Origin: an uncultured Eubacteriales bacterium
GTDB taxonomy: Bacteria; Acidobacteriota; Aminicenantia; Aminicenantales; Aminicenantaceae
DNA: 64,000 bases
Reading direction: 5' to 3'
Assembly: GCA_964449165.1 (NCBI GenBank)
Contig: CAYVAT010000013.1
Coordinates: 407 to 64,406, forward strand
The notes below the pieces were generated by a model that saw only the letters and a program-made list of their open reading frames with translations, was not told the DNA's origin and made no database searches. This document shows positions 1 to 23,747 of the stretch, in pieces. Position 1 is the stretch's first letter. Each line of letters starts with the position of its first letter. A program made the position numbers and the translations under genes.

Positions 1-1985
1 TGGGAATTACTCTAAAAGAGATTATTTATGATATTGGAGGCGGGATTCCCAAGGGAAAAAAATTTAAGGCAGTTCAGACCGGTGGACCATCAGGAGGCTG
101 TATCCCTGCAAGTCTGATTGATTTGCCAGTGGATTATGAAAAGTTGACTGAAGCCGGTTCCATAATGGGTTCCGGTGGAATGATTGTGATGGATGAAGAT
201 ACGTGTGTAGTGGATGTAGCGAAATATTTTATCGAGTTTACAAATGATGAATCCTGCGGAAAATGTTCATCCTGTAGAGAAGGCTCATCCCAACTCCTTG
301 AAATACTAAAAAAAATAACCAGGGGAGAAGGTGAAGAACAAGATCTTCAGACTTTGGAGGACCTCAGCCATGTGATAAAAGATACCTCAATGTGTGGATT
401 GGGTCAGACGCTGCCGAACCCGGTATTAAGCACATTGAAATATTTCATAAATGAATATATAGAACATATTAAATATAAAAGATGTTCTGCTTTAGTATGT
501 AAAGGTATAATTTCATCCGCCTGTCAGCATATATGTCCATTATCGCAGGATGTGCCCAGTTATATAGGGCTCATTGCTCAGGGAAAATTTGATGAAGCGA
601 TTAAAGTCGTAAGAAAAGAGAACCCATTACCCCTTATTTGCGGACGTGTATGTCATGCTCCTTGTGAAGAAAAGTGTGTAGCAGGGGAATGGGGTGATTC
701 CATAGCAATTAGATCGCTGAAACGTTTCCTCGCAGATTATGAGATGAAGAATGGGGTTATCATTGAAGAAAAACCGAAAAGTGAGAGAGCGGAGAAGATT
801 GCTGTGGTCGGTTCCGGTCCTGGAGGATTGACTTGTGCACATTACCTCGCCTTGGAGGGATATAAAGTTACTGTTTTTGAGAGTCAGGAAGTACCTGGAG
901 GCATGCTTGCGTTAGGCATCCCGGAATTCAGATTACCCAAGGGTGTATTGAAATATGAAATAGGCAGGATACGAAAATTAGGGGTTGAAATTAAAACAAA
1001 TACTACGATTGGGAAAGATATTCCGCTTGATAAGCTGAAAGAAGATTATAAGGCAATCTTCATTGCTGTCGGTGCCCACAAGGGTTTGAAGATGAAAGTC
1101 CCAGGTGAAGATTCTAAAGGAGTAATCGATGCGGTGGAATTCCTGAGGGATGTTAACCTGGGTCGCGAAGTAAAAATTGGGGATAAGGTTATAGTTATTG
1201 GTGGTGGAAATTCAGCCATAGATGCGGCTCGAGTAGTAAAACGAATGGGAAAGGACACGGAGATTTTATACCGAAGGACAAGAGCAGAGATGCCCGCTAT
1301 TAAGAGTGAAATCGAAGAAGCCATCATAGAGGGCATTGATATACAATTTCTCGCAGCTCCAGTTAAAGTTCTATCGAGCAATGGAAAAATGGAGGCTATA
1401 GAGGCTATCAGGATGGAACTAGGAGATGTAGATGCGAGCGGTAGAAGGCGCCCTGTTCCGATTGAGGGATCTGAATTTAAAATCAATGTGGATACTCTGA
1501 TCCTGGCCATAAGTCAGGAACCAGATGTGTCTTTATTGAATGGAAATGGATTGAATATTTCTAAGTGGAACACAATTGAAGTCGATCCTGAGACTCTTCA
1601 TACAAATATCGAGGGAGTATTTGCAGGTGGCGATGTGGTGACCGGCCCGAATACAGTAACCGAAGCCATGGCTCACGGAAAAGTTGGAGCTCAAATGATA
1701 GATAAATATATACGGGGAGATAAGCTGGAAAGAAAATACAAGGTGACTCGTCCGGCAGTCCGCGTTGAAGCCCTTGAGGTTGCAGAAGAAGAAATCAAAG
1801 AGCTCAAAAAACCTAAAATGCCATCGATGCCTATTGCTGAAAGGGTTAAGAGTTTCAAAGAAGTTGAATTGGGATTCACAGAAGCGGATGCGATTACTGA
1901 AGCGAAGCGTTGTCTCCGGTGTGATCTAGAAAGAGAAGAAGATAAAGCAGCAGAGAAAAAGAAGAATAACGAAGGGAAAAAATAA
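1..1985 (+). CDS. NuoF-like NAD(P)H-binding flavoprotein (C-terminal part) fused to a GltD-like FAD/NAD(P) oxidoreductase. It is 5'-partial: the reading frame is open from nucleotide 3.
   Basis: The frame opens upstream of the ORF-track Met: nt 3-122 translate to [35 protein letters not shown], the NuoF/HoxF FMN-NADH region. The [4Fe-4S] motif [12 protein letters not shown] and MCGLGQT are present. They are followed by a GltD-type Fe-S region ([13 protein letters not shown]) and a Rossmann motif [19 protein letters not shown]. Confidence 0.8.
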
Positions 1986-2085
1986 TGCTTCTTGAGATTG
2001 AAATTTTGGCATCTGATGACAAGAAGATACCAGGAATTGTAAACATAGAGAATTGTATTGAATGTGTTATAAGCGGAGGCTTGGC

Positions 2086-5000
2086 GTGATAGAGCTGACA
2101 ATAGATGGTAAGAAGAGTGAATTTCCTGAGGGTAAAACACTATTAGAATGTATTAAGAGTACTGGAATAAAGATACCGACTCTCTGTTATCATAAAGCTT
2201 TAACTCCATATGGAGCATGCAGATTATGTGTTGTAGAAGTGACTCAAGGCAACAGAACGGCAATTCAGGCTTCATGCACTTATCCGGCTATCAATGGTTT
2301 AATAGTGAACACCCATACTGAAAGAATAATAAAATCGAGAAAAATTATAGTTGAGCTATTATTAGCGAGATGCCCCGATTCAAAGGAGATACAGAAAATA
2401 GCAGAAGAATTGGGTGTAAAGGAAACACGGTTTAAGAAAAAAAATGAGGATTGTTTTCTTTGTGGCTTATGCGTGAGGATGTGTAATGAAAGGATGGGTA
2501 TCAGTGCAATCAATTTCGTTAATCGCGGTCCCCATAAGAAAGTAAGCCCGCCATTTGACGTGGTTTCTGATGTATGCCAGACATGTGGCGCCTGTGCTTT
2601 TATTTGTCCAACAGAAAGGATTAAACTCGAGGAAATCAGCAAGAATAAAGAAGTCCCCATATTGGATGAGTACAATGAAAGATTAATTAAAAGATCAGCT
2701 GCTTATATCCCATATCCTCAGGCTGTTCCTAATAAAGCTGTAATTGATGAGAGATATTGCGTACATATGCTTAAGGATGAATGTGGAGTCTGCAAAGAGT
2801 TTTGTGAAGCAGATGCAATTGATTATGAACAAAAAGAAAAGAAGAGTGAATTAAACGTCGGTGCAGTAGTTGTATCCCCAGGATTTGATATATTTGACGC
2901 AAAAATCAAGGAAGAATATGGATATGGATTATATCCAAATGTTGTTACGTCGCTTGAATTTGAAAGAATCTTATCTTCTACAGGGCCGTATCTCGGCAAA
3001 GTCTTAAGACCCAGTGATGGGACAAAGCCAAAAAGGATAGGATTTATTCAATGTGTCGGCTCGCGTGACATAGATCGGGATTATTGTTCCTCTGTATGCT
3101 GTATGTATGCGACAAAGGAAGCTATCATCGCTAAAGAGCATGCGGGTGAAGATTTAGAATGTGATATATTTTTTATGGACATGCGCGCATTCGGTAAAGG
3201 ATTTGATGCGTATTATCAAAGGGCAAAGGAACTTGGAGTAGATTATATCCGATGTCGTCCAGCTGCTGTGAAAGAAATTTCTCAAACAAAAAATCTTATA
3301 ATTGAGTATCTGATTGAAGATGATAAGAAAGTTTCTCGTGAATATGACATGGTTGTTCTATCTGTCGGTATAGTACCTCCAAAATCTGTAAAGGAAATTT
3401 CTGAAAAATTTGGCATCGAATTGAATGAATTTAACTTCTGTAAGACAGATCCATTTAGACCTGTTGAATCGACACGGGAGGGAATTTATACGTCAGGGCC
3501 TTTCACAGAGCCTAAAGATATACCTGAGACCATAATGCAAGCATCCGGAGCCTCATCAAAAGTTTTATCCCTTTTAAAAGACGTTAAAGGCAACTTAATA
3601 ACCCCAAAGGAATATCCGCCAGAAATAGATGTAGAAGGGCAGGAGCCAAGAATCGGAGTATTTATATGCCATTGCGGGACAAATATAGGCGGAGTGGTAA
3701 ATGTTCCAAGAGTCGTTGAATTTGCAAAAACACTTCCTAATGTTGTTTATGCAGAAGATAATTTATTTACCTGTTCAAATGATACTCAAAAAAAAATAAA
3801 AGAGAAAATAAAAGAACATAAGTTAAATCGTGTAGTCGTTGCTTCTTGTACGCCAAGGACTCACGAACCTCTATTCAGACATACAGTCCGGGAGGCGGGA
3901 CTAAACCCATATCTTTTTGAAATGGCGAATATCAGGGATCAATGCTCATGGATTCATATGCATGAACCTGAAAAAGCCACAGAGAAATCCAAAGACCTGG
4001 TGAGAATGACCGTAGCTAAATCAAGATTATTAGCACCTCTTCAAAAAATATCAGTACCAATAATAAAATCAGCGCTTGTTATCGGTGGCGGACTTTCTGG
4101 GATGACGTCTGCGCTTGAACTGGCAAGTCAAGGGTTTGATGTATATTTAGTGGAAAAAGAAAAAGAGCTGGGTGGAAATCTGAGACGTCTTCACTACTTA
4201 GTAACCGGAGAAAATCCGCAAGATGAGTTAAAAAAGCTTATTGAAAATGTAAAAAAGAATAAGAAAATCCATTTATATACAGAAGCCAGAATAGAAAAAT
4301 TTGAAGGTTCAATCGGAAATTTTAAAACAACTATTTCTTCAAAAGGAAAGTCAATAGAGCTTGGCCATGGTGTAGTGGTTGTTGCAACCGGTGCACAAGA
4401 ATATAAACCGAAAGAGTATTTATATGGTCAGCATGAAAGGGTTTTAACCCAACTCGAACTTGAAGAGCGCCTAAGCACAAACGGCGAGTGGTCAGCTCCA
4501 GATAAAAATCAAATGCCCAGGACCATTGTAATGATTCAATGCGTTGGCTCACGGGATGATGAAAGGCCTTATTGCTCAAGGGTTTGTTGTACAGAAGCTG
4601 TGAAGAACGCCTTAAAAATAAAAGAACTTTCACCTGAAGCATATATATATATATTGTACCGAGATATAAGAACTTATGGATTTAACGAAAGCTTCTATAC
4701 AGAAGCAAGGCGAAAGAACGTTGTATTCGTAAGGTATGATGAAGACCGGAAACCAGAAGTTTCAAAAAACGGAAACGGATTGCGGGTGGAAGTCTTTGAC
4801 CAGACTTTAAGGATGCCGATTGAGATATCTGCGGATTTAGTCGTGTTGTCAGCAGGAATAGTTCCAAATGATGACAGCGAAACAATTTCTCAATTTTTAA
4901 AAGTTCCTTTAAACACCGATGGATTTTTCCTTGAGGCACACATGAAGCTGAGACCGGTTGACTTTTCCACTGACGGTGTGTTTCTTGCGGGGATAGCCCA

Positions 5001-5352
5001 CAGCCCGAAGACGGTTTCAGAAAGCATTGCCCAGGCAGAGGCTGCCGCCTGCCGTGCAGCAGCAATTTTAAGCAAGGACGAGTATGAAACCGAGGCCACG
5101 ATTTCCTCGGTGAATGAAGAACTCTGTACCGGGTGCGGTACATGTGTCGAGGTATGCGAATTTGACACTCTTGAACTTGTCGAAACACCTGAGGGCGAGA
5201 TGGTATGCAGAGTGAATCAAGCGCTCTGCAAAGGCTGCGGCTGCTGCGCAGCGGCGTGCCCGAGCGGGGCGATCGAACAGAATGGCTTCAGGAGAGACCA
5301 GATCCTTTCAGCGGTTGATGCAGCAACAGCCTGGGGAGAAGAAAGTGGCTAA
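2086..5352 (+). CDS. Multidomain fusion: NuoG-like N-terminal 2Fe-2S/4Fe-4S domain, then a partial HdrA-like FAD segment, then a complete HdrA-like module (N-domain, FAD, C-terminal 2x[4Fe-4S]).
   Basis: The N-terminus TIDGKKSEFPEGKTLLECIKSTGIKIPTLCYH...GACRLCVV is NuoG/HydA-like, with Cys motifs CFLCGLCVRMC and CQTCGACAFICP. HdrA signatures QCVGSRD...YCSSVCC occur twice, plus GVFICHCGTNIGG, the dinucleotide motif VIGGGLSGM, and C-terminal CTGCGTCVEVCE / CKGCGCCAAACP. The likely start is GTG 2086 with a GGAGG 6 nt upstream; the ORF-track ATG 2062 is the alternative. Confidence 0.75.
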   Translation: MIELTIDGKKSEFPEGKTLLECIKSTGIKIPTLCYHKALTPYGACRLCVVEVTQGNRTAIQASCTYPAINGLIVNTHTERIIKSRKIIVELLLARCPDSKEIQKIAEELGVKETRFKKKNEDCFLCGLCVRMCNERMGISAINFVNRGPHKKVSPPFDVVSDVCQTCGACAFICPTERIKLEEISKNKEVPILDEYNERLIKRSAAYIPYPQAVPNKAVIDERYCVHMLKDECGVCKEFCEADAIDYEQKEKKSELNVGAVVVSPGFDIFDAKIKEEYGYGLYPNVVTSLEFERILSSTGPYLGKVLRPSDGTKPKRIGFIQCVGSRDIDRDYCSSVCCMYATKEAIIAKEHAGEDLECDIFFMDMRAFGKGFDAYYQRAKELGVDYIRCRPAAVKEISQTKNLIIEYLIEDDKKVSREYDMVVLSVGIVPPKSVKEISEKFGIELNEFNFCKTDPFRPVESTREGIYTSGPFTEPKDIPETIMQASGASSKVLSLLKDVKGNLITPKEYPPEIDVEGQEPRIGVFICHCGTNIGGVVNVPRVVEFAKTLPNVVYAEDNLFTCSNDTQKKIKEKIKEHKLNRVVVASCTPRTHEPLFRHTVREAGLNPYLFEMANIRDQCSWIHMHEPEKATEKSKDLVRMTVAKSRLLAPLQKISVPIIKSALVIGGGLSGMTSALELASQGFDVYLVEKEKELGGNLRRLHYLVTGENPQDELKKLIENVKKNKKIHLYTEARIEKFEGSIGNFKTTISSKGKSIELGHGVVVVATGAQEYKPKEYLYGQHERVLTQLELEERLSTNGEWSAPDKNQMPRTIVMIQCVGSRDDERPYCSRVCCTEAVKNALKIKELSPEAYIYILYRDIRTYGFNESFYTEARRKNVVFVRYDEDRKPEVSKNGNGLRVEVFDQTLRMPIEISADLVVLSAGIVPNDDSETISQFLKVPLNTDGFFLEAHMKLRPVDFSTDGVFLAGIAHSPKTVSESIAQAEAAACRAAAILSKDEYETEATISSVNEELCTGCGTCVEVCEFDTLELVETPEGEMVCRVNQALCKGCGCCAAACPSGAIEQNGFRRDQILSAVDAATAWGEESG

Positions 5353-5872: not shown

Positions 5873-6229
5873 ATGGCAAAGATGGCAATTACATGCAATG
5901 GTTCGGCCGCACCGAATGTTTATCCGACCTTCATTCTCGGATCTTCAGCAGTGGCATCGGGTGATGAGGTAATCCTGTTCTTTACCCCGGGCGGAGCACC
6001 AGCCCTGGTGAAAGGCGAAATGGAGAAGATGCAGGACATAAAAGGGTACCCGAATTTGATTGAGCTGTACAATGGTATGGTCGAACTTGGGGCCAAAATC
6101 TACGCTTGCGAAATTTGCCTTGAGGCAAAGGATTTGAAGAAGGAAGACTTCAGGGAGGGAGTTGAGATCGTTGGGGCTACATCGTTTGTTAACGAGATTA
6201 AGGACGCGACAATTACGTTCTCGTTCTAG
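5873..6229 (+). CDS. DsrE/DsrF-like sulfur-relay family protein
   Basis: 118 aa of small alpha/beta protein with MAKMAITCNGS...ILFFTPGGAP...IYACEICLEAKDL. Size and conserved Cys context fit the DsrE/TusD family. A strong RBS, AAGGAGAGAG, lies upstream. Confidence 0.6.
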   Translation: MAKMAITCNGSAAPNVYPTFILGSSAVASGDEVILFFTPGGAPALVKGEMEKMQDIKGYPNLIELYNGMVELGAKIYACEICLEAKDLKKEDFREGVEIVGATSFVNEIKDATITFSF

Positions 6230-6486: not shown

Positions 6487-6606
6487 TTTTCAGTGATTGA
6501 TAGTTAGTAGCTAACAGGGATCGGATTCAGCCTTCCTGTCGGCTATTTCTATCAGCTTGTCGGAGTGGAGGCTGCATTGCCGGAGGAACAAGAAAAGGAA
6601 GAAAAG

Positions 6607-7026
6607 ATGAGCGAGGAATTTGAGCCGCGTATAGTTGCTTTTTTATGCAACTGGTGTTCGTATGCCGGTGCGGATGTGGCGGGTTCGAGCAAACTAGAGA
6701 TGCCGCCTACCATAACACCCGTGAAGGTAATGTGTTCGAGCCGGGTTGATCCGGTAATGGTGATCACAGCTTTTCTGCGCGGGGCCGACGGTGTGCTGAT
6801 TGCCGGATGTCATCCGGGAGATTGTCACTACGACAAAGGCAATTATTACGCGCGCAGGCGATTTGCGGTTTTAAGAGAAATTTTCAATACGCTTAGACTT
6901 GAAGGGGAGCGGTTGAGGCTTTCCTGGGTCTCCGCGTCGGAAGGACCGCGATACGCAGAGGTAGTGCGGGAGTTTTCCGAAAAGATCAAGCAGTTGGGCC
7001 CGAACCCTGTAAAACAGAAGACATAA
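6607..7026 (+). CDS. MvhD-like protein, second paralog
   Basis: MSEEFEPRIVAFLCNWCSYAGADVAG...VMCSSRVDP...GCHPGDCHY. The ORF-track start is GTG 6565; ATG 6607 with AAGGAAG upstream matches paralog N-termini better. Confidence 0.7.
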   Translation: MSEEFEPRIVAFLCNWCSYAGADVAGSSKLEMPPTITPVKVMCSSRVDPVMVITAFLRGADGVLIAGCHPGDCHYDKGNYYARRRFAVLREIFNTLRLEGERLRLSWVSASEGPRYAEVVREFSEKIKQLGPNPVKQKT

Positions 7027-7053: not shown

Positions 7054-8340
7054 ATGACTAAAAAACAGCAAGAGGCCAAGGATCAGGTTCTTGTGATCGG
7101 TGCGGGAATGGCCGGGATCGAGGCCAGCCTTACACTGGCCTCTGCCGACAAGAAGGTCTACCTCGTGGAGAAGGAACCGCTGTTCGGCGGAAAGGTTATC
7201 AAGTTCGAAGAAGTCTTTGCCAACATGGAATGCTCCACATGTATGGCAGCGCCGAAACAGCAAGAAGTGCTTCAGAATGAGAAGATCGAGTTGCTTACGC
7301 TCAGCAAGGTAAAAGAAGTTAAAGGAGAAGCGGGTAATTTTACTGTAAAGATTGAAAAAAAGGCAAGATACGTGAGCCTCGAGGACTGCATAGGCTGTAA
7401 CGAGTGTTTTGAACCCTGCCCGGTAAGTCTGCCCAATGAGTTCGAGGAGAACCTGGGTGAGAGAAAGGCTATATATATCCCCTGTCCCGGCGCGCTACCG
7501 AATGCCCCGTCGATAGATACAGATAATTGCGTGAGATTCACGAAGGGAGAAGATTGCCAGTTGTGCAAGGAAGCCTGCATGTTTGAGGCAATCGATTTCG
7601 ACCAGAAAGATGAAGAAGTGGAACTCAATGTTGGGGCCATAATTGTAGCTACAGGATTTGACCTTATGGATTCCGAGCAGATTTCTGACTGGGGTTACAA
7701 TGGCGAAGCGAACGTGTATACCGCACTTGAGATGGAAAGGTTGTATGCGTCGAACGGGCCAACTGCGGGAAAAATCATTTTAAGAAACAATAAAGAACCG
7801 GCATCCGCGGCAATGATTCACTGTGTGGGACGCGAAAAAGCGGGTTACTGTTCTGGCGTATGCTGTATGTACAGTTTCAAGTTTATTCATTACTTGAAAG
7901 ACAAACTGCCGGAAATAAAACTGTATGATGTCTACAGCGACTTTTGTATGCCAGGCAAGAGCTATCAGCCATTTTTCGAGCATTTGAAAGATAAAACAGA
8001 GTCGGTTCGGTTCCAAGATCTGAAAATCGTGCATCAGAACGGTAAAGTACGGATCAAATATAAATCCTTGGCAGGCAAGGAGGAAAAACTGGATGTAGAT
8101 ATGGTGATTCTTGCACCCGCTATCGTGCCCGCCAAGGGGGCATCGGAATTGGCCAAGAAACTGGGCATTGAACAAACTGAGAGCGGATTTTTTGGTTTTC
8201 AATCGAGTGACCGTTCACCGGAGGAGAGCGGCCGTGAGGGGATTTATCTTGCGGGGTGTGTTCTCGGGCCCGAAGACATTGGCAGAGCAATTGCCCAGGC
8301 CGAGGCAGCGGCAGGGAAAGTACTTGCATTGCTTAGTTGA
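7054..8340 (+). CDS. HdrA-like flavoprotein, central module: FAD domain with inserted 2x[4Fe-4S] ferredoxin, lacking the HdrA N- and C-terminal domains
   Basis: VLVIGAGMAGIEASL, FEEVFANMECSTCM, CIGCNECFEPCP, CQLCKEAC, IHCVGREKAGYCSGVCCMY. It is collinear with residues ~140-560 of the canonical HdrA at 15747-17669. Confidence 0.75.
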   Translation: MTKKQQEAKDQVLVIGAGMAGIEASLTLASADKKVYLVEKEPLFGGKVIKFEEVFANMECSTCMAAPKQQEVLQNEKIELLTLSKVKEVKGEAGNFTVKIEKKARYVSLEDCIGCNECFEPCPVSLPNEFEENLGERKAIYIPCPGALPNAPSIDTDNCVRFTKGEDCQLCKEACMFEAIDFDQKDEEVELNVGAIIVATGFDLMDSEQISDWGYNGEANVYTALEMERLYASNGPTAGKIILRNNKEPASAAMIHCVGREKAGYCSGVCCMYSFKFIHYLKDKLPEIKLYDVYSDFCMPGKSYQPFFEHLKDKTESVRFQDLKIVHQNGKVRIKYKSLAGKEEKLDVDMVILAPAIVPAKGASELAKKLGIEQTESGFFGFQSSDRSPEESGREGIYLAGCVLGPEDIGRAIAQAEAAAGKVLALLS

Positions 8341-8355
8341 GCGAAGAGGAGTGTA

Positions 8356-10038
8356 ATGGAGAAGAAGAGCGTAATGGATAGGAAAATCGGCGTTTATGTT
8401 TGTGAATGCGGGCCGAACATAGCAGATGCTCTGGATATAGACAGGGTTATCGAAGCTGTGTCGGGCATGGAGAATGTCGCTGTTATCGATAGGTATAAAC
8501 TCCTGTGCTCCCCGGACGGGAAGAAATACCTTGCCGAGCAGATAAAAGAACATGGGCTGACACACTTGGTGGTTGGAGCGTGTTCCCCAAAACAGCATGA
8601 AGCGACTTTTATGGGCGTATGTAAAGAAGGTGGGATGAATCCTTTCCTGATGCAGATGGCCAATCTTCGAGAGCAGATCGCATGGATAACTCCAGACAAA
8701 GAAAAAGCTACCGAACGGGCGATCAGGCACATGAAAGCGGCTGTTCGACGTGTCCGGTATCACGCGCCGTTGGAACAAAAAGAAATTGAATGTAATGCAG
8801 ATGTGCTGGTCATAGGTGGAGGTATAGCGGGAATGTCGGCAGCCCTGCTGCTGAGCAGTCCGGACCGAAAAGTGTTTCTAGTCGAAAAGAATACAGAACT
8901 CGGAGGAATGGTTTCAAGATACGAGAAGCTCTTTCCGGATATGATCAGAGGCAGTGAGATTACGGAAAGGCGCGTCAAGAGCTTGAAAGAAGACGATAAT
9001 ATCGAGGTGCTAACAGGTACAAAAGTGGAGAAAATCCTCGGCTTTTTCGGAAACTTTGTAGTTACTGTCCGCGAAGGAGAATCCGAACCTCGAGAGTTTA
9101 AAGTGGGAGCTGTTGTAGTGGCCACAGGTGCAGACCTTTTCGATCCCGGTACCCTGGAGGAATACGCGTACGGGAAGATAAAAAATGTTGTTACTGCCCC
9201 CGAGGTTGAAGAAATGAATCTGAAAGGAAACATTAAGCTCGAAAACGGAAAAGAACCGAAAAGTGTTGGGATTATTCATTGCGTTGGTCGGAAAGAGAAA
9301 GGGTACTGCTCAGAGGTGTGCTGCAGAGCGGGGATGAAGATATCGCGCTATCTGAAAGAAAAGATTCCGGCCGTTTCAATAAAGCATTTTTATCAGGATC
9401 TCTGTGTTCCGGGCTCTGGAGCGCAGGCGTTCTACGAGGAGACCCGGGATGCGGGGGCGGAGTTTGTCTGCACAGATACAGTTAAACTGAAGGAGTCCGA
9501 TAAAAATATCAAAATAGATCACGACGGTAAAGTTGATACAGTAGACATGGCGGTCCTTCTGCCCGCAATAGAACCGGCAGAAGACACTTCTGATATTTCC
9601 GAAATGCTCGGTGTTGAAAAGGGAAAGGGAGGATTTCTTACGGAAGAACACGAGAAGATAAGCCCGGTCACTACAACCGTCGAAGGAGTATGCCTGGCCG
9701 GGTCTGTTTCAGGACCAAAAACCGTACGTGACGCCGTGTCCCAGTCAGAAGCTGCAGCGGGGAAGATACTTTCCTCATTGGTGCCGGGTCGAAAACTGGA
9801 AACAGAAGCCAAGACTTCGAAAATATTCGAGAATTTGTGTACGGGCTGTAGAACTTGTCTGACGGTATGCTGTTACAGCGCAATCGAGTATGATGAATCG
9901 AGAGGAGTTTGTGTGGTTAATGAGGTGCTCTGCAAGGGATGCGGGAATTGCGCAGCAGCTTGCCCCTCTGGAGCGGCAATGCATCAGCAATTTACACCAA
10001 AACAAATCTACAGGGAAGTGATAGAGATATTGCGATGA
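8356..10038 (+). CDS. HdrA-like flavoprotein with N-terminal Cys domain and C-terminal 2x[4Fe-4S], but no inserted ferredoxin domain
   Basis: IGVYVCECGPNI...LLCSPDG...VGACSPKQ; VLVIGGGIAGMSAAL; IHCVGRKEKGYCSEVCC; C-terminal CTGCRTCLTVCC and CKGCGNCAAACPSG. RBS GAGGAG lies upstream. Confidence 0.75.
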   Translation: MEKKSVMDRKIGVYVCECGPNIADALDIDRVIEAVSGMENVAVIDRYKLLCSPDGKKYLAEQIKEHGLTHLVVGACSPKQHEATFMGVCKEGGMNPFLMQMANLREQIAWITPDKEKATERAIRHMKAAVRRVRYHAPLEQKEIECNADVLVIGGGIAGMSAALLLSSPDRKVFLVEKNTELGGMVSRYEKLFPDMIRGSEITERRVKSLKEDDNIEVLTGTKVEKILGFFGNFVVTVREGESEPREFKVGAVVVATGADLFDPGTLEEYAYGKIKNVVTAPEVEEMNLKGNIKLENGKEPKSVGIIHCVGRKEKGYCSEVCCRAGMKISRYLKEKIPAVSIKHFYQDLCVPGSGAQAFYEETRDAGAEFVCTDTVKLKESDKNIKIDHDGKVDTVDMAVLLPAIEPAEDTSDISEMLGVEKGKGGFLTEEHEKISPVTTTVEGVCLAGSVSGPKTVRDAVSQSEAAAGKILSSLVPGRKLETEAKTSKIFENLCTGCRTCLTVCCYSAIEYDESRGVCVVNEVLCKGCGNCAAACPSGAAMHQQFTPKQIYREVIEILR

Positions 10039-11117
10039 AAGAAGGGCATGTAATCAAAGCAGCTGAAGGGACGAGTAAAGCTATAGCCGGGCTTTTAAAG
10101 AGCTCGCTGGAGAAGAAAATCTTTGAGGCTGTGCTTGTGCCAATACGCACAAACGAAGGATATAACTACGTTTTGACGGATAACGCCGACCTTCTGGAAA
10201 GGGCCGAGATAATGCCCCCGGTGATGTCTGTTCAAGGGGGCAAGGTGTTGCAGGCTCTGACTCGGCACGGGAAAAGCAGGAAAATCGCCGCCGTAATGCG
10301 GATGTGCGAAATACGGGCTGCTGTAGAGCTTTCCAAGTTGGAGCAGACGGATTTGGAGAACGTTTTCTTTATCAGTGTGGATTGTAATGGCGTAACACCT
10401 CTCTCCGATTACCTGGAAGATCCGTCCAGCGCCGGCACGAAGCTCCGGCCACTTTGCGAAATCTGTACGTCATTCAGTGTTGTTGGAGATAAACAGGCCC
10501 AGGATGTTGATATACACGCTGCAACCATGGGTGTAGATGAAGGAGAAGTGTTGTTTATTCCCATGAGCGATGACGGTGAAAGTGTGCTGGAGAAACTGGC
10601 CATTGATAAGAAAAAAGACGCCGGGAAATGGGTAAAGGAAACAGAGAAGTTGCAGAAGCAGCGTATAGCCGCCAGGGAAAAAGCTCTGAAAGAAACAAAG
10701 GAAATGGTAAAAGGACTGAACGGTTTGCTGGAGGTGTTCAGCCGGTGCATAGAATGTCACAACTGCCGCAGTGTATGCCCGATATGCTATTGTCGGCTCT
10801 GCTTTTCTGATAAGGATACTTTCCGGGAAACAGGCGCGGAATATCTTGATCGTGTGCAGGCCCAAGGGGTGATGAAGTGTACAGATGACCTTCTGCAGTT
10901 CCATTTGGGCCGGATGTCGCACATGAGCTTATCGTGCGTGTCCTGCGGAATGTGTGAAGATGTGTGCCCGGTGGACATACCGGTTGGACAAGTATTCAGC
11001 GCCGTAGCCGAGAAAACTCAGGCGATATTTGACTATTTTGCGGGTAAAAGTTCTGATGAGGAACAGCCGCTCAGGACATTCGAGCTGGGTGAATTGGTTG
11101 AAGTAGAGGACAAATGA
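10035..11117 (+). CDS. FrhB/FdhB/FpoF-family protein (coenzyme F420 hydrogenase/dehydrogenase beta-subunit-like flavo-Fe-S protein), paralog 1
   Basis: RMCEIRAAVEL corresponds to the FrhB motif GTPCQIQAVR. C-terminal CIECHNCRSVCPICYC and CVSCGMCEDVCP. The start ATG at 10035 overlaps the previous stop (ATGA); the ORF-track Met at 9939 lies inside the upstream gene. Confidence 0.65.
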   Translation: MKEGHVIKAAEGTSKAIAGLLKSSLEKKIFEAVLVPIRTNEGYNYVLTDNADLLERAEIMPPVMSVQGGKVLQALTRHGKSRKIAAVMRMCEIRAAVELSKLEQTDLENVFFISVDCNGVTPLSDYLEDPSSAGTKLRPLCEICTSFSVVGDKQAQDVDIHAATMGVDEGEVLFIPMSDDGESVLEKLAIDKKKDAGKWVKETEKLQKQRIAAREKALKETKEMVKGLNGLLEVFSRCIECHNCRSVCPICYCRLCFSDKDTFRETGAEYLDRVQAQGVMKCTDDLLQFHLGRMSHMSLSCVSCGMCEDVCPVDIPVGQVFSAVAEKTQAIFDYFAGKSSDEEQPLRTFELGELVEVEDK

Positions 11118-11155: not shown

Positions 11156-12265
11156 ATGACTAAGATGTTGAAAATAGATAAAGCGATTTCAGACGGGACC
11201 AGAGATTTTCTGCGCTATCTTCTGGACAGCAAGAACGTGCGTAGTGTGGCAGTGCTGAGGAGAGATAGGACGTCTGGCTGGGTCAGCTACAGCCTGATCT
11301 CTGATCCGGAAAAGATAGAGGAAGCGGTCCCTTTTTCTCCGGTCATGCCATACAACGCGGGTGAGTATCTCTCTCGCCTCACATCCAAGGGACCGTTCGA
11401 TAAGCCTGTTGCGGTGGTATTGCGTCCATGCGAACAGCGAGCGTTTGTGGAGCTTGTAAAACGACAGCAGGGCAGTTTGGACAATATCATAACAATCAGT
11501 TCGGTTTGTCCGGGAGTTTATCCTTTGAAAACATTTGTTCGTGAGAACGAGGACAAGCTGTTTAAGGATTACTGGTCGGTGGTAGCTGATGGAAAACAAC
11601 CTGAGGGGATCCGGGACACGTGTTCGTTCTGTGAGCATTTTGTTCCGGCTGAAGCCGACATTGTCATACCCATAGCAGGCGAGAAGGATACGGGCAAAGA
11701 ATGCAAATTGTTCGCGAATACCGAAAAGGGAGCTGAACTACTGAAGGGGATAGATGGGAAAATACAGGAATCTGAACTGGAGACAAAAGGAACCGAAGCT
11801 ATCCGGCAGTTGCGGAAGGAAAACGAAGAAAAGATGCTGGCCGATCTGGGGAAAAAGTTATCGGGATTAGATGGGCTGGTAGAAATGTTCAGTACGTGCA
11901 TTGGCTGTCATGGATGTCGGTCGGTTTGCCCGATTTGTTACTGCCGCTTATGTGAATTTGATTCTTCTCGAAGTGAATACGAGGCACGAAAATATGAAAT
12001 CGAACTGCGCAAGAAGGGGGGCGTAAGAATACCCCCGGGCTCCATAGCCTTTCAGATAGGTCGGATGATCCATATAGGCCTTTCCTGTGTGAGCTGCGGG
12101 ATGTGTAGCGACGTGTGTCCCGCCGATATCCCGGTTGCAAATATTTTCAGGAAAGCGGGAAAGGCGGTCCAGGATGTGTTCGAATACATTCCTGGAAAGG
12201 ACCTTGAGGATAGTATCCCTGTCACGACATTTGAAGAAGAGGAATTGAGAAGTGTTGAGGATTAA
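11156..12265 (+). CDS. FrhB/FdhB/FpoF-family protein, paralog 2
   Basis: RPCEQRAFVELVK; CIGCHGCRSVCPICYCRLC; CVSCGMCSDVCPADIP. It aligns with paralog 1 throughout. Confidence 0.65.
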   Translation: MTKMLKIDKAISDGTRDFLRYLLDSKNVRSVAVLRRDRTSGWVSYSLISDPEKIEEAVPFSPVMPYNAGEYLSRLTSKGPFDKPVAVVLRPCEQRAFVELVKRQQGSLDNIITISSVCPGVYPLKTFVRENEDKLFKDYWSVVADGKQPEGIRDTCSFCEHFVPAEADIVIPIAGEKDTGKECKLFANTEKGAELLKGIDGKIQESELETKGTEAIRQLRKENEEKMLADLGKKLSGLDGLVEMFSTCIGCHGCRSVCPICYCRLCEFDSSRSEYEARKYEIELRKKGGVRIPPGSIAFQIGRMIHIGLSCVSCGMCSDVCPADIPVANIFRKAGKAVQDVFEYIPGKDLEDSIPVTTFEEEELRSVED

Positions 12266-12729
12266 GAGGGTGGTGAATCAGATTTTATTATCTTTGTTAT
12301 TTCATCTACAATTCCCGGAATTTTACTTTTTACCCCAGGAGTACATTCCTCGCCAAACGTAGTATTATCTTCTATTTCTATTGCATAAATTTCAATAATT
12401 TGAGGTATTTTATATCCCAGCTTCCTTCCGAGTTCAATTGCAGTTCTAATATTCACTCCATGTGAGTATGATGGAGTTGAAAAAGTGCCTATATCTTCCA
12501 GGTTTAGTTTGTAAAGGGTGCCAGGTGTTTCTTTTTCTGTTTTTATGGAGTCGATGATGATAAGTCTCTCGTATTCACCAATATAGTCAAGCAGTGAAAT
12601 TCCCGCCAGACTTGTTTTTATCACTTCAATATCAGGAAGGGAAAGTTTCTCTATCTCATTTGCCACACAGATGCCTACCGAATCATCTGTCAGAATTGGG
12701 TTTCCAACTCCCAATATAAGAGTTTCCAT
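12262..12729 (-). CDS. [NiFe] hydrogenase maturation endopeptidase (HycI/HybD/FrhD family)
   Basis: ILGVGNPILTDDSVGICVANEI...IIIDS is typical of hydrogenase C-terminal processing proteases. It sits directly downstream of the large subunit. Confidence 0.8.
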   Translation of the reverse strand: METLILGVGNPILTDDSVGICVANEIEKLSLPDIEVIKTSLAGISLLDYIGEYERLIIIDSIKTEKETPGTLYKLNLEDIGTFSTPSYSHGVNIRTAIELGRKLGYKIPQIIEIYAIEIEDNTTFGEECTPGVKSKIPGIVDEITKIIKSDSPPS

Positions 12730-12786
12730 TTTTGAAGACGGGAAATATCAATCCACAGTAATGAGCGTGAAGAGATCGAAATATTT

Positions 12787-14250
12787 TTACGACCTTCTGA
12801 TAGTGTCTATTATATTCGCTTTATGATCTCTAATGTTGACTTCGAGAGGCATATGCCCGGGCAGTGAATGAGTAGCACAGGCAAGGCAAGGGTCATATGC
12901 ACGGAATGCCATTTCTACCATGTTAAGTAATCCCTCAGATACCTTTCCCTCCTTTATGAGCCCTTTTGCCGCTTTCTCTATTGACATACATATCGAAGCA
13001 GCATTGTTAACTGTAGCAACAATTAAATTGACGTCTGTAAGAACACCTTTATCGTCTGTCTTGTAATGATGATAGAGAGTACCTCTTGGTGCTTCTACTA
13101 CGCCAATCCCTTCATCAGGAACAGCGGTTGGGATACTTCTAACATCGGGGTCGAGAATTTCCTCGTCCTGGGCTAACTCCAAAAGCCTTTCAGCTGCATA
13201 GAGAAGCTCCACTAGCCTTGCCCAATGATAGGCAAGAGTGTTGTGTGCTGGCTTACCACCCAAGATATTATACATTTTTTCATATTCTACTTGAGCCAGT
13301 GGCGTTGCCATACCATCGGACGCATTGAGTCTTGCAAGAGGAGCTACTCGATAAACTCCGCTGTCCTTTCCATCAACGAATCCCTTCCAGCCGACACCTT
13401 TAAGATATGGAAATTTTATGTAGCTCCACGGCTCAACATGCTCCTCAATATGATTCAGATACTCCCGAGACTTAAACTTGGCAAACTCCTTACCTTCAGG
13501 GTCAACTACTCTAATATCTCCGTCATAAAAATTGACTTTATTGTTCTCATCAACAAGTCCCATATAATATGTTTTGTGTTTGTAAATATCTCCCACAATG
13601 ACATCTACATACTCTTTGTTTTTGAGAACAATGTCTTCAAAAGCTTTCAAAGCGAATTTGGCAAATTCTATCGCATCTTTCCCTATTTGGATATATTCTT
13701 CTCTATCTTCTTTGGTAACCCCCTTGGATACACCCCCAGGAAGATTACATACGGGGTGAATAACCCTGCCTCCCTGCTTTGTAATGATGTTGCGCAGCCG
13801 CTTTCTGATATCTATAACCTTCTTGCCCGCGTCAAGACCAACTTTCTGAATGACTCCCAAAATATTCCTCTCTCCTGCGGGTGCCTGTGGTCCAACAACA
13901 AAATCAGGTCCCCCAAGGAAGAAGAAGTGGAGAGTATGGTCTTCAGCCATGAAAGCAGAATTAATAAGCTCTCTTATCTTCTTGGCCGGTGACGGAGGGG
14001 TTACATGGAACAAATCATCAAGCGCCTTGCCAGATGCCATATGATGGGTAGTGGGACATACGCCACATATCTTGGGAGTGATTCTCGGCATTTCCTCTGC
14101 CATGCGTCCTTCAGAAAATTTCTCAAATCCCCTCAGCTCAGGAACTTGAAAAAAAGCCTTCTCCACATTTCCCTCGTTATTAAGAAATATTTCTATCTTC
14201 CCATGACCTTCAAGCCTTGTTATTGGGTCTATCGTTATTCTTTTTGCCAT
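12787..14250 (-). CDS. mvhA: [NiFe] hydrogenase large subunit, Mvh/group-3c-like
   Basis: N-terminal RLEGHGKIEI and PKICGVCPTTHH; C-terminal DPCLACATHSLPGH (the Ni-Fe ligating CxxC pair); RBS AGGGAGA. Confidence 0.85.
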   Translation of the reverse strand: MAKRITIDPITRLEGHGKIEIFLNNEGNVEKAFFQVPELRGFEKFSEGRMAEEMPRITPKICGVCPTTHHMASGKALDDLFHVTPPSPAKKIRELINSAFMAEDHTLHFFFLGGPDFVVGPQAPAGERNILGVIQKVGLDAGKKVIDIRKRLRNIITKQGGRVIHPVCNLPGGVSKGVTKEDREEYIQIGKDAIEFAKFALKAFEDIVLKNKEYVDVIVGDIYKHKTYYMGLVDENNKVNFYDGDIRVVDPEGKEFAKFKSREYLNHIEEHVEPWSYIKFPYLKGVGWKGFVDGKDSGVYRVAPLARLNASDGMATPLAQVEYEKMYNILGGKPAHNTLAYHWARLVELLYAAERLLELAQDEEILDPDVRSIPTAVPDEGIGVVEAPRGTLYHHYKTDDKGVLTDVNLIVATVNNAASICMSIEKAAKGLIKEGKVSEGLLNMVEMAFRAYDPCLACATHSLPGHMPLEVNIRDHKANIIDTIRRS

Positions 14251-14329
14251 TTTATCTCCCTTTTCCTCAAAGTGATGTAAATTGTCTTATAAACTTAACA
14301 AACAATAAAAAATTGCTCCAAGCATTCAT

Positions 14330-15310
14330 CTATGCCATTCTCTTCCTTTTTAACAGCGAAGAAGGCAAACTATACATATAGAAAAGACCTGCCGGATCTA
14401 CTATCTGGTCGATTAACTTCTTCGTGTCTTCCTCTGTCATCTTCTCTTCTTCTTCCACGCCTATTATGGATGCAATTGCTGATAATCCTTTTGCCCCCTG
14501 GTCTACTACTTCCTTTGTCGGTCCAAAACATCCGCGACACGGCATATTTGCATTTATGCATCTCTCACCACAGCCGCTCCTGGTTACAGGGCCTAAGCAG
14601 ATAAGCCCTTCTTCTAAAAAACACTTCTCAGGGTCTGGTATTATCTCGTAGGGTCTCTTTATTTCCTTTATTGAGAGTTTATCCGGTTTTGTCTCTCCAC
14701 GTGGGCAAGTTTCACACAAGGATTTATCAGGTGCGAGAACTGCTCCCTTTTCGGGAAGCTTACCTTCCAATATAGCTGTTACCGCATTCATAATTAAATC
14801 TGGTGGCGGTGCACATCCAGGAAGATAATAATCAACATCGATTGTCTGGTCCAGTGTCTTGACTGTATCATAGAACTCAGGAAGCGTAAGCTCACCCTCA
14901 GGAATATTTGTTTTTTGTTGTGGCACTATCCCATTGGGGTTTGCTATAGAGGGTACTGTCTTGTAAACCCTCGTGAAAATTGTTTCCCTATTCCAAAAAT
15001 TTGCAAGCCCTGGTATTCCACCTAAATGAGAACAGGACCCAAACGCGACTACAAGCCCAGATTTCTTTCTCAATAGTTTCACCATCTCTTCCTGTTCTTC
15101 TGTTCTAATAGCACCGTTTATGAAACTCACTGCTATTTCTCCATCGCCCATCGCCTCCACATCCTTTTTCTTAAAGTCCAGTGCGACTGGCCAGAACGCT
15201 ATATCCACTGCCTCCACTACTTTTAATATATCCTCATTAAGGTCGACAATAGCTTCCTCACATCCACCACATGAAGCGCACCAATAAAATGCTACTTTTG
15301 GTTTAGCCAT
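14330..15310 (-). CDS. mvhG: [NiFe] hydrogenase small subunit, Mvh/group-3c-like
   Basis: VAFYWCASCGGCEE at the N-terminus (proximal cluster), with further Cys motifs. RBS AGGAGG. Positioned between mvhD and mvhA. Confidence 0.8.
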   Translation of the reverse strand: MAKPKVAFYWCASCGGCEEAIVDLNEDILKVVEAVDIAFWPVALDFKKKDVEAMGDGEIAVSFINGAIRTEEQEEMVKLLRKKSGLVVAFGSCSHLGGIPGLANFWNRETIFTRVYKTVPSIANPNGIVPQQKTNIPEGELTLPEFYDTVKTLDQTIDVDYYLPGCAPPPDLIMNAVTAILEGKLPEKGAVLAPDKSLCETCPRGETKPDKLSIKEIKRPYEIIPDPEKCFLEEGLICLGPVTRSGCGERCINANMPCRGCFGPTKEVVDQGAKGLSAIASIIGVEEEEKMTEEDTKKLIDQIVDPAGLFYMYSLPSSLLKRKRMA

Positions 15311-15348
15311 AATTGCCTCCTTCTAAAATAGACATCATTTCTACTTAT

Positions 15349-15750
15349 TTAGGATAATTCTAGGGGACCTAAATTTTTTACAGTTTCTGCCATTTCATTT
15401 GCTACTTTTGCAAATCTCTCTCCTTCGCCTGCTGCAACCCAGTCCAATCTAACTCTTTCTTCTTCAATCCCCAGCTGCTTCAGGGTATTCTTCAAAAGAT
15501 GTGCTCTCCGAAGTGCCTTATAGTTTCCTGTTTTGTAATGGCAGTCCCCGGGATGGCATCCTAAAATTAACACTCCGCTTGCGCCCTCTTTTAATGCTTG
15601 TATCACAAGCTCTGGATCTACACGACCGCTGCACATAACCCGAACGATTCTTACATTCGCAGGATAATTCAATCGTGCGCCCCCAGCCTTATCTGCTCCT
15701 TCGTATGAACACCAATTACATAGAAAACTAACGATTGTTGGCTCATTCAT
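15349..15750 (-). CDS. mvhD: MvhD ([2Fe-2S] subunit linking hydrogenase and HdrA)
   Basis: TIVSFLCNWCSYEGADKAG...RVMCSGRVDP...GCHPGDCHY; RBS AAGGGGG; 4-nt overlap with the hdrA stop. Confidence 0.8.
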   Translation of the reverse strand: MNEPTIVSFLCNWCSYEGADKAGGARLNYPANVRIVRVMCSGRVDPELVIQALKEGASGVLILGCHPGDCHYKTGNYKALRRAHLLKNTLKQLGIEEERVRLDWVAAGEGERFAKVANEMAETVKNLGPLELS

Positions 15751-17669
15751 CTTACTACCCCCTTAATTTCAGCAAATATTTGCTCCTTTGTGAAGTGCTT
15801 TGCTCTCGCTGCACCCGACGGACAGGCTGATACACAAGTTCCACACCCTCTACAAAGAGTCTCATCTACAACTGCAATCTTTTTTTCTACATCCCGAGAT
15901 ATGGCAGAGTATGGACATAGAACAATACATACGTTACAGCCACTGCATAAATCTTCACTTATCTCTGATACCTTTGCTTCTAACTCAAGTTTTTCACCAG
16001 GTATAAGTCTTGAAAGTATTCTTCCTGCAGCGGCTCCTCCTTGAGCCACTGCATCTCCAATATCCTTTGGTCCCTGACAGCTCCCTACTGCAAAAACGCC
16101 TTCAAGTGCTGTAGCAAAAGGCTTCATCAATGTGTGCTCCTCAGCAAAAAAGCCCTGGTCATCTCTGGCTATATCAAGGAGTTCGGCTATTTTTTCAGTA
16201 TCTTCGTTAGGCTCAACTGCAGGTGCAAGTACTACCATATCTACGGATATCTCTTTTCCATTTGTTCCCACTTTTATTTTTTCTCCTTCATCAGTAACAG
16301 TCACATCCTCTCCACTTCTTATAAACTCTATACCTTTCTCCACAGCCTTCTTATGCATCATTTGATGTTCTTTCTTCGGAAGACATAGGTCAGTATAGAA
16401 GTGATGCATCTTTACCGCGGGCAATTTTTCTTTCATAAGATGGGCCAAGGTGAGTGAATACATACAGCATATGCCTGAGCAATAGCCCTTCTCTTTCCTG
16501 CCAACACAGTGAATGAAAGCTATGGATTTTGGCTCCTTCCCGTTCTTTAATTGAATCTTCCCTCCTGTTGGTCCATTTGAGGCATTCAACCTCTCTAATT
16601 GCATGGCTGTTAATACATTGTCATATTTTCCATATCCATATTGAGGAAGTTCTTTGGGATCAAAAAGTGCAGAGCCCGTAGCTAAAATAATTGCACCTAC
16701 GTTCTTCTCAATTGTCTTGTCCTCGTCATCATAATTAATGGCGTCAAAGGAACAACTTTCTTTGCAGATGCTGCATTCCTCTCCCTTGAATCTCTTGCAG
16801 TTATTCTTATCTATGACAGGCACATTAGGAAGACCACCAGCGAACGGAATATATATTGCTTTCCGGGATGACAATCCCTCATCATATTCATTGGGCACTT
16901 CCACAGGACACGGCTCAAAACATGCATCACATCCAATGCAGGCTTCTTCGTTTACGTATCGGGCTTTCTTCTTAACCTTGACAGTGAAATTCCCAAACGA
17001 CCCAACAACTTCCTCTAGCTCGCTATAAGTGAATGCTTCTATATTCTCTTTTTGAAGGACTTCTTGCAGTTCAGGTGCTATCATGCAAGGTGCACACTCC
17101 AAAGTTGGGTAAACTTCTTCAAATCTTGCTGTAAGCCCACCAATACAGGGGCTCTTTTCCACGAGATAGACCTTCCTGCCCTTCTGTGCGAGTGATAGAC
17201 ATGCCTCTAATCCAGCTACCCCTCCCCCTACTACTAGAACATCAGGCTGAATATCAATTTCCTTTTTCTCTATAGGTTCTTGTAAAGAAGTCCTGTTTAT
17301 TGCAGCTATAACAAGACTTTTTGCTTTTTCAGTTGCAGCAGATTTTTCAGCGGTAACCCAGGCACACTGCTCCCTTATGTTCGTCATCTGCATAAGATAA
17401 GGATTCAGCCCTGCTTCCTCACAAGCCCTCATAAATTTAATCTCGTACTGCTTTGGAGTGCAGGCAGCAATCACAACTCTTGAAAGCTTCTCATTCTTTA
17501 TTTCTTCTTTGAGAAATTTTAGCCCTTCTACTGAACACAGGAGATTATGACTCTTTGCCACTGCTACATCCTCGATGCCCTTTACTTCATTGGCAATAGC
17601 ATCTACATCTACCTTGTCTCCTATGTTTGGTCCACATTTACACACATATACGCCTATCTTTTCAGCCAT
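15747..17669 (-). CDS. hdrA: Heterodisulfide-reductase subunit A-like flavoprotein, canonical full-length HdrA architecture
   Basis: IGVYVCKCGPNIG, VLVVGGGVAGLEACL, inserted ferredoxin CIGCDACFEPCP/CSICKESC, IHCVGRKEKGYCSGICCMY, C-terminal CSGCNVCIVLCP/CRGCGTCVSACPSG; RBS AAGGAGG. Confidence 0.85.
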   Translation of the reverse strand: MAEKIGVYVCKCGPNIGDKVDVDAIANEVKGIEDVAVAKSHNLLCSVEGLKFLKEEIKNEKLSRVVIAACTPKQYEIKFMRACEEAGLNPYLMQMTNIREQCAWVTAEKSAATEKAKSLVIAAINRTSLQEPIEKKEIDIQPDVLVVGGGVAGLEACLSLAQKGRKVYLVEKSPCIGGLTARFEEVYPTLECAPCMIAPELQEVLQKENIEAFTYSELEEVVGSFGNFTVKVKKKARYVNEEACIGCDACFEPCPVEVPNEYDEGLSSRKAIYIPFAGGLPNVPVIDKNNCKRFKGEECSICKESCSFDAINYDDEDKTIEKNVGAIILATGSALFDPKELPQYGYGKYDNVLTAMQLERLNASNGPTGGKIQLKNGKEPKSIAFIHCVGRKEKGYCSGICCMYSLTLAHLMKEKLPAVKMHHFYTDLCLPKKEHQMMHKKAVEKGIEFIRSGEDVTVTDEGEKIKVGTNGKEISVDMVVLAPAVEPNEDTEKIAELLDIARDDQGFFAEEHTLMKPFATALEGVFAVGSCQGPKDIGDAVAQGGAAAGRILSRLIPGEKLELEAKVSEISEDLCSGCNVCIVLCPYSAISRDVEKKIAVVDETLCRGCGTCVSACPSGAARAKHFTKEQIFAEIKGVVR

Positions 17670-22989: not shown

Positions 22990-23012
22990 AACCTCAGCCT
23001 GGATTATTCAGG

Positions 23013-23744: not shown

Positions 23745-23747
23745 GAA

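Follow-up and report, generated by a model that had tools for sequence, protein, structure and literature searches.

Two HdrA-type genes with complementary domains

In a 64,000-nucleotide stretch of the genome of an uncultured bacterium (GTDB family Aminicenantaceae; assembly GCA_964449165.1, contig CAYVAT010000013.1, positions 407 to 64,406), here called the window, two adjacent genes on the plus strand encode reduced proteins of the HdrA type, which we call core and shell. Both belong to a tightly packed run of plus-strand genes between 5.8 and 12.3 kb, in which a DsrE-like gene and an mvhD gene precede core and two fdhB-like genes follow shell (Table 1). The mvhD gene ends 27 nt before the ATG of core, and core ends 15 nt before the ATG of shell, with the two open reading frames (ORFs) in the same frame. 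The start of the first fdhB-like gene overlaps the stop codon of shell by 4 nt (ATGA), and the second fdhB-like gene follows after 38 nt. Scans for promoters and terminators inside the operon stayed at background level. The mvhD ORF was listed from a GTG at 6565. Since its orthologs are about 141 aa long and do not contain the first ~14 residues, the ATG at 6607 is probably the true start.

Core and shell were compared with HdrA proteins of solved structure. Core aligned over residues 150-568 of the M. marburgensis HdrA only (8rvu_a/8rvv_A, E 9e-99), a span that consists of the thioredoxin-reductase-like flavin adenine dinucleotide (FAD) domain and the inserted ferredoxin. No match of core to the N-terminal or C-terminal domains was returned by the PDB sequence search. 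Shell aligned in two blocks, residues 4-243 and 320-649 (E 6e-107). The residues in between (~244-319), which form the inserted ferredoxin, are missing from shell at a clean junction between aa 239 and 240. The canonical HdrA of the window, encoded at 15747-17669, aligned end to end with solved HdrA (E 5e-169). When all four HdrA-type sequences of the window were aligned (the canonical HdrA, core, shell and a 1096-aa fusion protein encoded at 2062-5352), the same domain gaps were seen in core and shell. The domain content of both genes and the number of HdrA-type sequences are thus as proposed in a preliminary description of the locus, which had been made from the sequence alone. It had also considered that the two genes might be full-length paralogs whose missing regions had gone unrecognised. 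The alignments show that these regions are absent, and each domain presence or absence is identical across 80 core and 67 shell orthologs. Moreover, the short spacings leave no room for hidden exons upstream of core or shell.

The preliminary description had spoken of one HdrA split into two genes. This does not hold, because each gene encodes a complete FAD domain; over this domain core and shell are ~40% identical, they fall into separate clades (see below), and each is closer to the canonical HdrA of the window (51% identity for core, 47% for shell). On these grounds a gene split or frameshift was ruled out. The full four-domain architecture of HdrA is found in neither polypeptide. Core has the exact domain set of the HdrA6 class, which is of type I, without the N-terminal cluster domain or the C-terminal ferredoxin and with the inserted ferredoxin retained, whereas shell can be compared with classes A12 or A5 by description only (PMC12054007). 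In the PDB sequence search, no solved structure of a pair of the core-shell type was found, and none was nearer to either protein than canonical HdrA.

Table 1. Genes of the core-shell operon and sites within core and shell (window positions)
Feature	Position	Strand	Basis or remark
DsrE/DsrE2-like small protein, 118 aa, opening gene of the module	5873..6229	+	Pfam DrsE_2 5e-15, DsrE 5e-10
MvhD/FlpD-type [2Fe-2S] connector	6565..7026	+	Pfam FlpD 1e-51
HdrA core paralog, 428 aa: FAD domain and inserted ferredoxin, HdrA6-type architecture	7054..8340	+	PDB match and alignment
Core Cys60-x-x-Cys63 (ECSTC), equivalent of the Cys197 motif	7231..7242	+	aligned to canonical C192/C195
Core inserted 2x[4Fe-4S] ferredoxin, aa 104-186	7363..7611	+	8 Cys conserved
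Core Cys257, 266, 270, 271, FAD-domain [4Fe-4S] ligands (high-potential exit), then K276 (K409 equivalent)	7822..7866	+	
HdrA shell paralog, 560 aa: N-terminal cluster domain, FAD domain, C-terminal 2x[4Fe-4S] ferredoxin	8356..10038	+	PDB match and alignment
Shell N-terminal domain, aa 1-138, Cys16, 18, 51, 76	8356..8769	+	"shuttle" [4Fe-4S] cluster needing the fourth ligand of a partner
Shell residues 198-201 (RGSE) in place of C-x-x-C of canonical HdrA and core	8947..8958	+	trans-ligand motif lost
Shell junction, aa 239-241	9070..9078	+	inserted ferredoxin of ~80 residues missing
Shell Cys309, 318, 322, 323 (FAD-domain [4Fe-4S] ligands), then K328 (K409 equivalent)	9280..9324	+	
Shell C-terminal 2x[4Fe-4S] ferredoxin, aa 477-560	9784..10035	+	Pfam Fer4_7
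FdhB/ElpB-like subunit 1, 360 aa	10035..11117	+	PDB matches; start overlaps shell stop codon (ATGA)
FdhB/ElpB-like subunit 2, 369 aa	11156..12265	+	PDB matches and Pfam FrhB_FdhB_C

Conservation of the pair and of its ligands

A locus scan over one genome per GTDB species gave at least 241 species-level matches from both domains of life, and 80 of these loci were kept. They carry the labels Dehalococcoidia, Thermoplasmata, Aminicenantes, WOR-3, Cloacimonadota, Aerophobetes, Spirochaetales and Armatimonadota; no genome labelled as anaerobic methanotrophic archaeon (ANME) was among the 80. Among the database homologs, the best 120 for core all have lengths of 418-438 aa, and the best for shell are nearly all 554-579 aa long, with a few shorter ones. 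Where the contig held enough sequence, shell was found directly 3' of core in 67/68 loci; the median distance between the two genes was 12 nt. In the lone exception (locus L014, ~9280-10178), about 900 nt lie between the two genes. The mvhD gene is the immediate upstream neighbour of core in 65/73 loci, the DsrE-like gene lies upstream of core in 59/69, and both fdhB-like genes come after shell in 58/61. A second mvhD trails the operon in 38/59 loci; the operon of the window itself contains only one. Genes for MvhAG were nearby in just 9/79 loci, and HdrB/HdrC was not found as a conserved neighbour in these 79.

In a neighbour-joining distance tree (336 shared columns, 40 bootstrap resamplings), the core orthologs were recovered as a clade in all 40 resamplings and the shell orthologs in 28. 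The identities were 0.59 among core orthologs, 0.57 among shell orthologs and 0.43 between the two groups. Because core and shell form separate clades, the duplication predates the spread of the operon. Judged from these sequences, core and shell are the result of an old duplication with complementary loss, and each is an orthologous family of its own. We also considered that the two genes are a frameshifted, truncated or mis-assembled HdrA or the remnants of a pseudogene. Such a view could point to the NCBIfam HdrA2 equivalog model, in which the two proteins score 402 and 439 bits, far below the cut-off of 1100. However, the FAD domain of either gene is complete and its motifs are intact, 67-80 independent assemblies show the same architecture, as do thousands of database proteins of matching length, and the exact core and shell proteins were also found on several independent contigs. 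The conservation data refute an artefact, to which we give practically no weight.

Ligand residues were counted in the 80 core and 67 shell orthologs, and FAD motifs and flavin-contacting residues in 81 core and 68 shell sequences. The C-x-x-C motif that contains the equivalent of Cys197 has its Cys in 80/80 core and 0/67 shell orthologs. All eight Cys of the inserted ferredoxin (C112, 115, 118, 122, 159, 168, 171 and 175 of core) are present in 80/80 core orthologs, and 67/67 shell orthologs have a gap at this place. The four Cys of the N-terminal domain are present in 67/67 shell orthologs, and the whole domain is absent from all 80 core orthologs. Likewise, the eight Cys of the C-terminal ferredoxin are found in 66-67/67 shell orthologs and are absent in core. 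The FAD-domain [4Fe-4S] cluster, on the other hand, is common to both: its Cys (C386, C399, C403 and C404 in M. thermolithotrophicus) are kept in 76-79/80 core and 67/67 shell orthologs. GxGxxG and the associated FAD glycine motifs are invariant in both sets. The equivalents of E356 and K409 are E228 and K276 in core (81/81) and E285 and K328 in shell (67/68).

Two losses within the FAD domain were also seen. Shell orthologs are without R360 and the G-P-T loop, which are 100% conserved in canonical HdrA and core; in the window, this appears as a 5-residue deletion at aa ~286-292 (~9211-9231). Core orthologs are without the H512/P517 motif ("EAHxKxxP"; aa 384/389, ~8203-8220), which is 99-100% conserved in canonical HdrA and shell. 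No role for either loss was found in the open literature.

Possible assembly and wiring of core and shell

In methanogens and many anaerobes, HdrA drives flavin-based electron bifurcation. There is still debate on how its mobile arm controls the passage of electrons between the two symmetric halves. In the crystal structure, the N-terminal cluster of one HdrA is ligated in trans by Cys197 of the partner HdrA (PMC9012536), and the mobile arm of one protomer sits on FAD', HA4' and HA5' of the partner (PMC12350162; PMC13518236). The input runs from the donor through the two clusters of the C-terminal ferredoxin and the [2Fe-2S] cluster of MvhD to the partner FAD', and the low-potential exit from the N-terminal shuttle cluster of the arm to the inserted ferredoxin of the partner (PMC12350162; PMC13518236; PMC9012536). 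The high-potential exit is the FAD-domain cluster of the partner, towards HdrC/B (PMC9012536; PMC12350162). E356 and K409 contact N5 of the flavin and have been proposed as the mark of a bifurcation-competent HdrA (PMC12054007).

Against this background, the electron paths of the preliminary description had to be redrawn. It had named the inserted ferredoxin together with the C-terminal clusters as the two electron exits of HdrA. The first is an exit, whereas the C-terminal clusters are the input path in the solved complexes. Consequently, the exits are not partitioned over two polypeptides as it had suggested; both stay on core, and the input arm is on shell. Its phrase of two differently wired flavin sites is still a fair description, as the motifs of both sites are kept, although not by way of partitioned exits.

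We propose, with a probability of about 0.68, that core and shell are diverged HdrA paralogs that form an obligate asymmetric heterodimer, in which one bifurcating flavin is fully wired and a second flavin is conserved. The complementarity in domains, ligands and synteny is observed; that the two proteins bind each other, the way in which electrons flow and the substrates discussed below are inferred. Of the two symmetric bifurcation units of the HdrA homodimer, one would have been kept whole and the other deleted. Shell would provide the arm, with the N-terminal cluster domain, the C-terminal ferredoxin and the docking site for MvhD. Core would provide the flavin body, with Cys60 as the trans ligand, the FAD, the FAD-domain cluster as the high-potential exit and the inserted ferredoxin as the low-potential exit. 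The shell arm would deliver electrons to the FAD of core, and the shuttle cluster of shell, completed by a fourth ligand from core, would pass them to the inserted ferredoxin of core. The flavin body of shell itself would keep its FAD and [4Fe-4S] cluster, with no arm serving it and no low-potential exit, and would most likely be a non-bifurcating redox site or a docking platform for one of the FdhB-like subunits.

The most telling detail is the distribution of the trans ligand. As the ligand Cys is absent in shell, the N-terminal cluster would stay incomplete in a homodimer of shell. Core keeps the ligand for a domain that it lacks, and shell keeps the domain but lacks the fourth ligand, so that an obligate heterodimer is the straightforward reading. 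Together with the adjacency of the two genes, this complementarity makes the heterodimer the best reading. The preliminary description contained neither this detail nor the published ANME arrangement discussed below. Alternatively, the operon could encode two independent enzymes, namely a core homodimer, like the minimal sHdrA-type proteins, and a shell homodimer. Indeed, a minimal HdrA-like protein without ferredoxin domains forms a stable homodimer and is matched by both proteins (PDB 6tjr), and HdrA6-type proteins are common (171 sequences; PMC12054007). However, a shell homodimer would leave a universally conserved N-terminal cluster domain without its fourth ligand, and core would have kept the Cys197-type Cys in every ortholog although it has no N-terminal domain. 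The close spacing of core and shell in distant phyla also argues against separate enzymes, and we regard this alternative as very improbable.

Several points weigh against a heterodimer with a single bifurcating unit. First, the shell site is not degenerate: its FAD motifs, its four cluster Cys and the equivalents of E356 and K409 are kept in 67/68 orthologs. We had considered the shell flavin as a vestigial site, and this was dropped as a firm claim in view of these same residues. Since the FAD motifs and the two N5-contacting residues are kept, the shell flavin and its cluster are very probably functional, and speaking of one functional unit may understate the part of the shell flavin. Second, most loci have two mvhD and two fdhB-like genes, which could correspond to two active input/output modules. 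Third, the annotated ORFs of the 64-kb window showed no HdrB/HdrC-like (CCG-domain) gene. Finally, the figure legends of 2025 are inconsistent, with N and C terminus swapped for HA1/2 versus HA3. We assigned the two-cluster set (HA1/2) to the C-terminal ferredoxin by inference from cluster counts, because it is the sole domain with eight Cys. What we say about the arm does not depend on this assignment, because both domains belong to the arm.

The first two points lead to a heterodimer in which both flavins are active in separately wired units, an arm-fed, ferredoxin-coupled one on core and another on shell, served by an MvhD/FdhB-like module of its own. This would agree with the retention in shell of the residues regarded as a mark of bifurcation (PMC12054007) and with the paired fdhB-like genes and the frequent second mvhD. 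On the other hand, shell has neither an inserted ferredoxin nor Cys197, it no longer has R360 and the G-P-T loop, both conserved in canonical HdrA and core, and the operon of the window has a single mvhD. In addition, using the C-terminal ferredoxin as an exit conflicts with the solved complexes. Two active units are therefore unlikely in our view, although this is the rival that we take most seriously.

An asymmetric HdrA pair is not a new idea; both the heterodimer and the architectures are already published. Chadwick et al. (2022) proposed the tandem HdrA5/6 and HdrA12/13 of ANME and the fusions HdrA3/4 and Moorella HdrA as symmetry-breaking heterodimers, and described the complementarity of the N-terminal domain with Cys197 and of the C-terminal ferredoxin in these proteins (PMC9012536). 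Core and shell are like these pairs in several respects. The two hdrA genes are adjacent on the same strand, the Cys of the N-terminal domain and Cys197 exclude each other (67/67 and 0/67 in shell, 0/80 and 80/80 in core), the C-terminal ferredoxin is present in shell only, and mvhD and fdhB-type genes are nearby. This likeness to HdrA5/6 and HdrA12/13 is one of published description. Unlike the ANME pairs, core and shell occur in a Gram-negative bacterial host, as seen from genes for MurA, NAD-dependent LigA, sigma-54 regulators and outer-membrane beta-barrel proteins in the window, and their family spans many bacterial and archaeal lineages that do not metabolise methane. Moreover, the operon described here has two fdhB-like genes and a DsrE-like gene and is without HdrBC/HdrD. 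A survey restricted to methane- and alkane-metabolising archaea derived the fused type II HdrA from classes A6 and A12, and its text does not use the word "heterodimer" (PMC12054007, Microbiol Spectr 2025).

In the searchable literature, including a bioRxiv preprint on HdrA evolution and a paper on deep-sea Chloroflexi, we found no fixed operon with two fdhB-like genes and dsrE that lacks HdrBC. Likewise, neither a core-shell pair in bacteria or in archaea outside the methane cycle nor an explicit mapping of the pair onto the arm-in-trans mechanism was found in the searchable literature. To our knowledge, no HdrA heterodimer of this kind has been purified or solved so far.

With the canonical complexes (MvhAGD-HdrABC)2, Fdh-Hdr-Fmd and Elp-Hdr (5odc, 7bkb, 8rvu), the pair shares the FAD domain, the cluster ligands, E356/K409, MvhD and the FdhB/ElpB homologs. 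Those complexes are symmetric homodimers with two complete units and an HdrBC high-potential branch, whereas the pair would form an asymmetric dimer that has a single arm and a single inserted ferredoxin, and the operon has no HdrBC and no FdhA/ElpA. If the proposed heterodimer exists, it would be a natural "half-sites" HdrA, and arm-swinging gating could be tested in it free of the ambiguity that two symmetric units bring. The asymmetric pair, which would have a single arm and a single fully wired flavin, would also allow the contributions of the two halves to be told apart. We see the main value of the locus in this natural single-arm system and in its pointer to a widespread, uncharacterised complex without HdrBC.

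Partner subunits, sulfur-linked genes and other redox genes of the window

The core-shell pair would work within a conserved module without HdrBC, consisting of the DsrE-like protein, MvhD, core, shell and two FdhB/ElpB-like flavo-iron-sulfur subunits. The latter two are 35% identical to each other and match the same PDB chains, which are FdhB/ElpB subunits bound to Hdr, subunit 1 with E-values of 7e-32 (9t1s_M), 3e-28 (8rvu_E) and 6e-20 (7bkb_E), and subunit 2 with 3e-34, 9e-31 and 1e-26, respectively. ElpB oxidises F420H2, and the electrons reach HdrA via ElpC/MvhD (PMC12350162). Homologs of both FdhB/ElpB and MvhD/ElpC are encoded in the operon, which thus holds parts of an Elp/Fdh-type donor arm. 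A homolog of FdhA/ElpA (molybdopterin family) was found neither in the operon nor in the rest of the window, nor as a conserved gene in the other loci; a second FdhB paralog is there instead. The idea that the upstream MvhD is the detached N-terminal domain of core was rejected, as a BLASTP comparison of MvhD with the N-terminal domain of shell was not significant (E 0.34) and Pfam gave nothing.

The DsrE-like protein matched NCBIfam DsrE2 with 1.5e-12, which is under the curated cut-off, and C79 is its sole conserved Cys in the ortholog alignment. In other loci, the operon is flanked by genes for YeeE/YedE-like membrane proteins (8 loci), a multi-rhodanese protein and ArsR-type regulators (8 loci). 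Such flanking genes were seen, for example, at loci L032, L042, L019, L016 and L031, and in the window a gene for an ArsR-type helix-turn-helix protein lies at 17764-18042. Cys79 and the YeeE-like, rhodanese and ArsR neighbours are hints at a possible link to sulfur trafficking. The sulfur-oxidising sHdr system has DsrE, TusA, rhodanese and YeeE accessory proteins. Its sHdrA (Hyphomicrobium denitrificans, 6tjr) is, like core and shell, a reduced form of HdrA; it binds FAD and one [4Fe-4S] cluster and is accompanied by DsrE-family and sometimes YeeE-like and rhodanese genes. In contrast to core and shell, sHdrA is without all ferredoxin domains, and its partners are HdrB/C paralogs and LbpA, which are all absent here. 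The sequence similarity of the two proteins to sHdrA is also far weaker (E 4e-22 and 3e-33) than that to methanogen HdrA (1e-99).

As a tentative and more doubtful extension of the heterodimer, the seven-gene module (DsrE-like, MvhD, core, shell, two FdhB-like and often a second MvhD) might be an undescribed, HdrBC-independent bifurcating or confurcating enzyme that uses a single-unit asymmetric HdrA and a new substrate pair. It could couple ferredoxin with two hydride carriers via the FdhB-like subunits, or with DsrE-bound sulfur. Uncultured bacteria and archaea of sediments, outside the methane cycle, widely carry the HdrBC-less operon, which suggests that its product is an abundant enzyme for redox balancing. 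For genome annotation, the many calls of "heterodisulfide reductase subunit A" of ~425 and ~560 aa would be read as the two parts of a single complex and would not be taken to indicate CoM-S-S-CoB metabolism.

Further redox genes are located on both sides of the operon. Upstream of the DsrE-like gene lie a NuoF-GltD fusion, the 1096-aa HdrA-type fusion and a further MvhD. The NuoF-GltD fusion (1-1985, plus strand) joins the C-terminal [4Fe-4S] region of NuoF to a GltD/NfnB-like NAD(P)-binding flavoprotein. Its frame is open to base 3, so the gene runs past the start of the window, and homologs elsewhere are 617-1125 aa long. The 1096-aa fusion (plus strand) has three parts. A HoxU/NuoG-like N-terminus with [2Fe-2S] and [4Fe-4S] motifs (aa 1-195) is followed by a partial core-like HdrA (aa ~196-507), which starts in the second half of the inserted ferredoxin and is without the GxGxxG segment and the Cys197 motif. 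[quoted passage not shown] The order of its parts is reversed compared to the fused HdrA3/4 of ANME. Large proteins resembling this fusion are encoded upstream of the core-shell operon in many loci.

On the other side, a convergent minus-strand cluster (12262-17669) encodes a hydrogenase protease, MvhA, MvhG, MvhD and the canonical HdrA of 640 aa. This canonical HdrA, which lies beside MvhDGA, has Thr at residue 407, the position of K409 in M. thermolithotrophicus. The position is Lys in the seven other canonical HdrAs examined as well as in core and shell. Further downstream, the minus-strand region 22456-25968 encodes a 458-aa [FeFe]-hydrogenase-related protein with an N-terminal 2x[4Fe-4S] region, which matches the group A/B models weakly. 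It is flanked by small ATPase proteins of the histidine-kinase type and a PHP-domain protein, and together with these neighbours it could form a sensory hydrogenase-like module.

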